A DNA stretch of 64,000 nucleotides, taken from assembly GCF_000026545.1 (NCBI RefSeq), contig NC_011601.1; one strand, 5' to 3'. Of this stretch, positions 11,155 to 11,619 are shown one piece after another. The stretch is from Escherichia coli O127:H6 str. E2348/69. GTDB lineage: Bacteria; Pseudomonadota; Gammaproteobacteria; Enterobacterales; Enterobacteriaceae. How positions within the stretch are numbered: position 1 is the stretch's first letter; every line of letters starts with the position of its first letter. The position numbers were made by a program, and so were the translations under genes. Below the pieces are notes generated by a model. That model was not told the origin of the DNA, made no database searches, and saw nothing but the letters and a program-made list of their open reading frames with translations.

Positions 11155-11371
11155 ACCCAAGCCGTTTGCCGTAAAACGGGCACTGTAGCAGAAACAGACG
11201 TCACTGGCGAGATCCAACGATATTCTCGACGCCCTATCACCCGACACGGCAATACAATAAAAAGTAACAATAATTCGCGGACAATTGTACCCAATTTCGC
11301 CTCTGTTCTCGCCAACGAGTCACCATGTAGGCAAGTAGGTAAAACATGCCAACCTGGAGAAGAAGATATAA

Positions 11372-11602
11372 ATATGGATCATTGTGCTGCCGCTGTATCC
11401 CGACATCAGCCCGGAAATTATTGCGATTGCTATCGGTTCCGGTGCGATTGGCTGCACGATCGTTACGGACTCGCTTTTCTGGCTGGTGAAGCAATATTGC
11501 GGCGCTACGCTCAATGAAACATTTAAATACTATACGACAGCGACATTTATCGCTTCGGTCGTCGCTCTGGCGGGCACATTCCTGCTGTCATTTATCATCT
11601 AA
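11372..11602 (+). pseudogene. dsdX: 3' remnant of D-serine permease dsdX (last ~76 codons only)
   Basis: In-frame GntP-type C-terminus (...[37 protein letters not shown]) without a 5' body; the frame is closed by TAA at 11369..11371. Confidence 0.75.
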
Positions 11603-11619
11603 GCGCAAAGAGACGTACT

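Follow-up and report, generated by a model that had tools for sequence, protein, structure and literature searches.

The csc locus of E2348/69

The window analysed here is a stretch of 64,000 nucleotides (64 kb) from the chromosome of Escherichia coli O127:H6 strain E2348/69. Its annotation is that of RefSeq PGAP for the E2348/69 chromosome NZ_CP059840.2, which is 100% identical to the window; the coordinates were converted accordingly. The following features lie at or near the csc genes.

5542..5742 (+), torI (PGAP)
5816..5830 (+), last 15 nt of the tRNA-Arg gene argW (CTGCAGGGGACACCA), an exact match to the K-12 and E2348/69 argW 3' end
5831..11384, csc island, 5,554 bp, with breakpoints from blastn against K-12
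~5895..6181 (+), relic of a DUF4942 gene, internal part (~aa 38-151 of 281; tblastn E 3e-23; Pfam DUF4942)
6038..6190 (+), small 'DUF4942' ORF (PGAP)
6270..7517 (-), cscB, sucrose permease (PGAP and ORF list)
7579..8502 (-), cscK, fructokinase (PGAP and ORF list)
8605..8623 and 8668..8687, two AGTTAACGTTAAC palindromes in the cscK-cscA spacer (repeat families D1 and I1)
8718..10151 (+), cscA, invertase (PGAP)
10159..11154 (-), cscR, LacI-type repressor, ATG at 11154..11152 (PGAP)
11155..11384 (-), upstream spacer of cscR and a decayed remnant of the 3' part of a yjfF-like gene for a galactofuranose ABC permease
11384..11602 (+), 'GntT/GntP/DsdX family permease, incomplete, missing N-terminus' (PGAP)
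11385..11388 (+), TGCT, a 4-bp microhomology of the yjfF and dsdX sides (three-way comparison)
11385..11602 (+), dsdX 3' remnant, K-12 dsdX nt 1121..1338, 72 codons plus stop
11620..12944 (+), dsdA, pseudogene ('frameshifted'; PGAP and alignment to K-12 and O157)
downstream of dsdA, emrY, emrK, evgA and evgS (PGAP)

The order at the same place in K-12 is torI-dsdC-dsdX-dsdA-emrYK-evgAS. The island replaces 2,368 bp of K-12 sequence (3633..6000 of the K-12 locus, L002), comprising all of dsdC, the dsdC-dsdX spacer and nt 1..1120 of dsdX, and it is this slot between the argW 3' end and dsdA that cscBKAR occupies. The four genes cscB, cscK, cscA and cscR have their published order and orientation, and the layout is that of O157:H7 and of strain Sanji. 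The two palindromes between cscK and cscA are presumed to be CscR operators because they fit the two 12-bp inverted repeats described, after Jahreis 2002, in PMC11251922. A search of 5000..13500 against Rfam gave no match at E <= 0.1.

No direct or inverted repeats bracket the island at 5831..11384; the lack of IS-like terminal inverted repeats and of a target-site duplication speaks against insertion as an IS element or transposon.

The left end at argW

On the left side, K-12 homology stops at 5830 and the island begins with the next base; the start of the csc/dsd polymorphism coincides with the final base of argW. The 15 nt at 5816..5830 are at the same time the attR core of an IntS/TorI prophage, and the records of phages HK620 and Sf6 have their attP core annotated over window positions 5700..5830. 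The prophage (1..5830 and upstream, L004) is complete, lambdoid-type and ~43 kb long, has intS, torI and an HK620/Sf6-type att, and is integrated in argW, so that it separates argW from the island in E2348/69. In the prophage-free strain Sanji, the island directly follows argW. In O157:H7, a different, recombinase-bearing element lies to the left, and the island still starts right after the 15-nt core. The left end is at the argW core in every case compared.

The distal boundary of the island lies inside dsdX. A second argW 3' core that might serve as a distal att is absent from the window, even with 3 mismatches allowed; the one copy is the prophage attR. There is no integrase gene within 5831..11384, intS belonging to the separate prophage. 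The DUF4942 relic, whose extent was enlarged by nucleotide comparison, is 64 bp away from the argW boundary, with its reading direction leading away from the tRNA gene. A full-length DUF4942 gene (L007) ends the yeeU/cbtA toxin-antitoxin module of CP4-like integrative islands. Because of this relic and of the boundary at the tRNA terminus, it is conceivable, if doubtful, that a CP4-like element once brought in the csc segment or lay next to it. Delivery by such an element is put forward tentatively, since the island holds no integrase and no distal att repeat.

Four phage records (ON470594.1, ON470589.1, ON470608.1 and ON470622.1) bear cscBKAR at the ends of the record, and one of these also includes the dsdX stub. 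A phage-borne csc cassette was considered and rejected: with csc at the record ends, together with dsdX', these are read instead as host DNA flanking the argW prophage. The presence of csc in them looks like a mis-delimited prophage or specialised/lateral transduction, and not like a cargo gene.

The dsdX remnant

The preliminary description of this region had dsdX cut down to its last ~76 codons at the right junction of the island. The truncation stands, but the count does not, as alignment to K-12 leaves 72 codons of dsdX plus the stop. The reading frame itself is as described, with a TAA at 11369..11371, an open frame over 11372..11599 and a stop at 11600..11602; the first four codons of this frame (IWII) are island sequence, not dsdX. 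Nor does the stub come immediately after cscR, as had been stated, since 230 bp of island sequence (11155..11384) intervene.

The identification of the fragment as a GntP-type C-terminus and the 3' end of dsdX holds, and the matches are beyond what chance would produce. Residues 5-75 of the 76-codon translation match positions 370-440 of 440 in the GntP_permease profile (PF02447) with E 2.6e-21 and 76.3 bits (cut-off 22.5), and K-12 DsdX residues 374-445 plus stop align to 11384..11602 at 98.6% identity (tblastn, E 5e-40). The nucleotide alignment to K-12 dsdX that had been proposed does reach the dsdX 3' end, and places the breakpoint at 11385; this position equals dsdX nt 1121 and falls on the second base of codon 374. 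Homology to K-12 starts abruptly at this base and continues through dsdA into emrY (95.7% over 2 kb). Codon 374 is GTG in the stub (11384..11386) and ATG in K-12 (M374V); the other differences between the stub and K-12, 5 in 218 nt, are all synonymous.

Searches of the whole 64-kb window with tblastn and blastn gave no match to dsdC or to dsdX nt 1..1120, which agrees with the reported absence of dsdC and of the dsdX 5' body. The dsdC-like matches in the window are just LysR paralogues, 27-42% identical, at ~53 and ~57 kb. The dsdX'-dsdA segment matches a single place in E2348/69.

The stub is orthologous to dsdX by synteny, being collinear with the K-12 dsdX 3' end, dsdA, emrY and emrK. It has neither the full length of the ~445-aa permease nor a start or promoter of its own. 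Because only residues 374-445 are present, there is no promoter-like site and PGAP annotates it as partial, the stub is a gene remnant and not a member of the GntP family in a functional sense. The interval 11050..11700 contains no promoter-like site; two weak terminator-like hairpins were found there, no more than expected by chance. Since a Shine-Dalgarno-like sequence, a promoter-like site and an Rfam match are all lacking, nothing in the sequence suggests that the stub is expressed.

A yjfF-like relic at the right end of the island

The sequence between cscR and the stub resembles the 3' part of yjfF. The relic corresponds to about codons 208-331, carries frameshifts and internal deletions, and lies on the same strand as cscR. 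The clearest case is found in L008, a genome labelled E. coli which serves as the representative of a separate species. When YjfF of Citrobacter amalonaticus was compared with the minus strand of the L008 spacer by tblastn, residues 209-230, 237-255 and 294-331 were matched; these three pieces are collinear, in different frames, and have a combined E of 1e-10. The corresponding pieces in E2348/69, O157 and Sanji are collinear and weaker, with E values of 1e-3 to 0.1 for single pieces, the search space being tiny. The strong yjfF signal is that of L008, together with the collinearity with the C. amalonaticus spacer; in E. coli proper the relic has decayed heavily. Local nucleotide alignments to yjfF score 53-72 against 22-24 +/- 3 for shuffled sequences, and they extend past the yjfF stop codon to take in part of the spacer between yjfF and cscR. 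These comparisons show the right end of the island to be a decayed yjfF-like fragment, and not cscR.

With blastn (E <= 1e-5), C. amalonaticus yjfF finds the native yjfF alone in E. coli genomes, the relic being too decayed; the native gene is intact elsewhere in 5,423 of the 5,426 genomes. In the literature searched, which comprised work other than Jahreis 2002 and Moritz & Welch 2006, no paper was found that names yjfF together with cscR. Small deletions have affected the relic in different strains: 13 bp have been lost between GCCAAC repeats in E2348/69 and 12 bp in Sanji (~11348 and ~11217).

The junction that follows the relic fuses yjfF' to dsdX'. The sequences at the join are as follows.

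Window: ...GGATCATTG / TGCT / GCCGCTG...
C. amalonaticus yjfF (reverse complement): ...GGATTGTTG / TGCT / ACGGGTG...
K-12 dsdX: ...TGCACCCA / TGCT / GCCGCTG...

The crossover is placed within the 4-bp microhomology at 11385..11388 because both parents have TGCT. A search for repeats or microhomology at this point had been suggested in the preliminary description, and TGCT is what it yields. Such a microhomology is a signature of illegitimate recombination; its length of 4 bp is an estimate, as it was measured against C. amalonaticus and not against the true donor.

The csc genes of Citrobacter and Pluralibacter

A scan for CscR over one genome per species gave C. amalonaticus (L010, L011) as the source of the nearest non-Escherichia loci. 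The C. amalonaticus CscR is 90-92% identical, and the csc core has ~82% nucleotide identity over window positions 6202..11195. The gene order in this species is ytfQ-ytfR-ytfT-yjfF-cscR-cscA-cscK-cscB-(MCP fragment)-fbp-mpl, in an ordinary chromosomal backbone. Pluralibacter has the yjfF-csc adjacency too. The MCP fragment is a truncated methyl-accepting chemotaxis gene (L010 14950..16062, profile positions 196-518 of 553) between csc and fbp; its truncation indicates that csc in C. amalonaticus was itself inserted there, between yjfF and fbp, long ago.

The csc segment of E. coli probably derives from a Citrobacter-like chromosome with csc between yjfF and fbp. A wider scenario is tentative and, in our judgement, somewhat more likely to be wrong than right: csc was captured one time from a Citrobacter/Pluralibacter-type chromosome, by way of a now eroded CP4-like element at argW, and csc and dsdCXA have since formed a long-lived balanced polymorphism. 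If this were true, the transfer ran into Escherichia, contrary to PMC11251922, which suggests E. coli as a possible source of the Citrobacter csc copies. The capture would also be old enough to be common to an Escherichia lineage diverged to ~90%, and csc and dsdCXA would be alternative alleles that are kept across species-level divergence, in gut versus urinary niches.

One junction across genomes

The sequence of the junction, ...GGATCATTG|TGCTGCCGCTG..., is the same base for base in E2348/69 (phylogroup B2), O157:H7, Sanji and L008, the last of which is ~90% identical to the window in both the csc core and the dsdA-emrY flank. The cscR 5' end and the relic are present in 2,663 of 5,426 complete E. 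coli genomes, and the collinear arrangement cscR-dsdX'-dsdA is found in 2,655 of these 2,663. Because the junction is identical across strains and L008, and collinear in nearly all genomes with cscR, the evidence argues for a single old event at the right end.

Later losses are seen at the same place in some genomes. The stub of L008 lacks a further 104 bp (window 11394..11497). In L009 (Escherichia sp. MOD1-EC7003) and H172, a secondary deletion of ~16.4 kb has joined window position 11261 to ~27688, and has removed what remained of the yjfF relic together with the dsdX stub, dsdA, emrKY, evgAS and other genes.

The right junction probably arose a single time, through illegitimate (microhomology-mediated) recombination or through a deletion, and would then have been inherited vertically as well as passed on by homologous recombination of its flanks. 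As for the order of events, csc may have replaced the dsd sequence in one step, or it may first have inserted at argW, with a deletion reaching into dsdX afterwards.

Origin of the stub

Taken together, the stub is very probably non-functional, and was left when a foreign cscB-cscK-cscA-cscR segment took the place of dsdC and of dsdX nt 1..1120, with a single yjfF'-dsdX' junction. It could be argued instead that csc entered repeatedly at an argW 'hot spot', in which case the dsdX breakpoints should differ by lineage. The literature does treat the locus as a hot spot of recombination that comes in several configurations (PMC11251922, PMC4366372), and the left neighbours of the island do differ, being the IntS prophage in E2348/69, the recombinase-bearing element in O157 and nothing in Sanji. 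However, E2348/69, O157:H7, Sanji and L008 share one identical junction, the same collinear junction recurs in 2,655 of the 2,663 cscR genomes, and the left end is constant at the argW core. Repeated entry is largely refuted already by this, and is the most improbable of the readings considered; the 'hot spot' variability is in what integrates into argW, and not in the csc/dsdX join. A further proposal, that the island was the cargo of a CP4-like tRNA-targeting element at argW whose core and distal att were later taken by deletions along with dsdC and the 5' part of dsdX, would refine the single-junction explanation and not replace it. The start of the island exactly at the last base of argW speaks for such an element, and so does the DUF4942 relic, typical of the distal CP4-like module, 64 bp from the boundary and directed away from argW. 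Yet the island is without an integrase, no second argW 3' end is found with 3 mismatches allowed, and intact islands have DUF4942 at the end far from the tRNA, so that at least two deletions would be needed; the csc genes of C. amalonaticus, moreover, sit in a plain chromosomal backbone without such an element. We regard this proposal as possible but unlikely.

It is also conceivable that the frame of 72 codons, for which the GTG at 11384 is a possible start, encodes a functional small membrane protein, or that the stub has been kept for regulatory signals of dsdA. The frame is intact, with M374V as the sole amino-acid change from K-12, and a weak dsdA promoter has been located 115 bp upstream of dsdA, inside the stub (O'Boyle 2020, PMC7486766). 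Synonymous-only differences are, however, expected from recombination of the flank with intact dsdX alleles. No Shine-Dalgarno-like sequence precedes the GTG and no promoter-like site is seen in 11050..11700; L008 has lost 104 bp of the stub and L009 all of it, and the dsdA behind it is silent in EHEC (PMC7486766) and broken in E2348/69. A function for the stub is, on this evidence, very unlikely.

Decay of dsdA and D-serine metabolism

In E2348/69, dsdA has lost one unit of a threefold TGGC repeat after 12734; the frame shifts at ~codon 372 and ends at 12819. The same loss occurs in 4 of 5,389 complete E. coli genomes, three of O127:H6 and one of O55:H7 (USDA5905). Because just these four genomes have it, the slippage is suggested to be recent and possibly recurrent. 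The frameshift fits a gene that decays after its expression has ceased.

According to published work, dsdA is almost silent once DsdC is lost and DsdX truncated (PMC7486766). In EHEC, deletions that remove cscR place dsdA under the cscA or z3622 promoters, and D-serine catabolism is restored (PMC7486766). Strain E2348/69 does not grow on D-serine unless given dsdA (PMC4366372). Going by this literature, dsdA without DsdC and the dsdX promoter would be nearly silent, and the cell could neither detoxify D-serine nor use it.

Relation to known systems

The substitution of csc for dsdCXA at argW was reportedly described by Jahreis et al. in 2002 and by Moritz & Welch in 2006, and Connolly et al. 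(2015) and O'Boyle et al. (2020) have published on it as well. Later papers on the swap cite both (PMC4366372, PMC7486766, PMC3032704, PMC11251922), and they bear out the fit to the known variability of the argW-dsdCXA island, with csc in place of D-serine genes, that the preliminary description had put forward. In PMC7486766, PMC4366372 and PMC3032704, csc is described as replacing dsdC and part of dsdX beside argW. The swap decides whether an E. coli strain uses sucrose or tolerates D-serine, and its inverse correlation with carriage of the LEE type III secretion system (PMC4366372) makes it a recognised niche marker.

The substitution is well known from EC3132, W and O157:H7, and is found in about half of all E. 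coli, so its occurrence in E2348/69 is nothing new in principle. The additions made here are modest: the exact breakpoint at dsdX nt 1121 in TGCT; the yjfF relic, whose novelty is claimed relative to literature other than the text of Jahreis 2002 and Moritz & Welch 2006, and which suggests a donor context of the Citrobacter kind; the presence of one junction in essentially all cscR genomes; and the further decay of dsdA in the O127:H6 lineage.

E2348/69 shares with EC3132, W and O157:H7 EDL933 the same genes in the same order and orientation, the position between argW and dsdA, the loss of dsdC and the truncation of dsdX, and with O157:H7 a junction that is identical base for base. Its allele is rare, however: 98-134 genomes are at least 99% identical to it and the others 94-98%. 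It also differs from these strains in the 13-bp deletion in the relic, in the lineage-specific dsdA frameshift and in the full IntS prophage between argW and the island.

The csc genes of C. amalonaticus and Pluralibacter have the same cscR-cscA-cscK-cscB layout, their proteins are 83-92% identical, and cscR is directly preceded by yjfF in the same orientation. In these genomes, yjfF is intact and the backbone is ytfQRT-yjfF/fbp-mpl, whereas in E. coli a decayed 3' fragment of yjfF is found at argW/dsdA. With the dsdCXA locus of K-12, where DsdX is a GntP-family D-serine transporter, E2348/69 has in common the last 72 codons of dsdX, the 17-bp dsdX-dsdA spacer and dsdA, all orthologous and syntenic (95.7%), while codons 1-373, the dsdX promoter and dsdC are those parts of the K-12 locus that the csc island has taken the place of.
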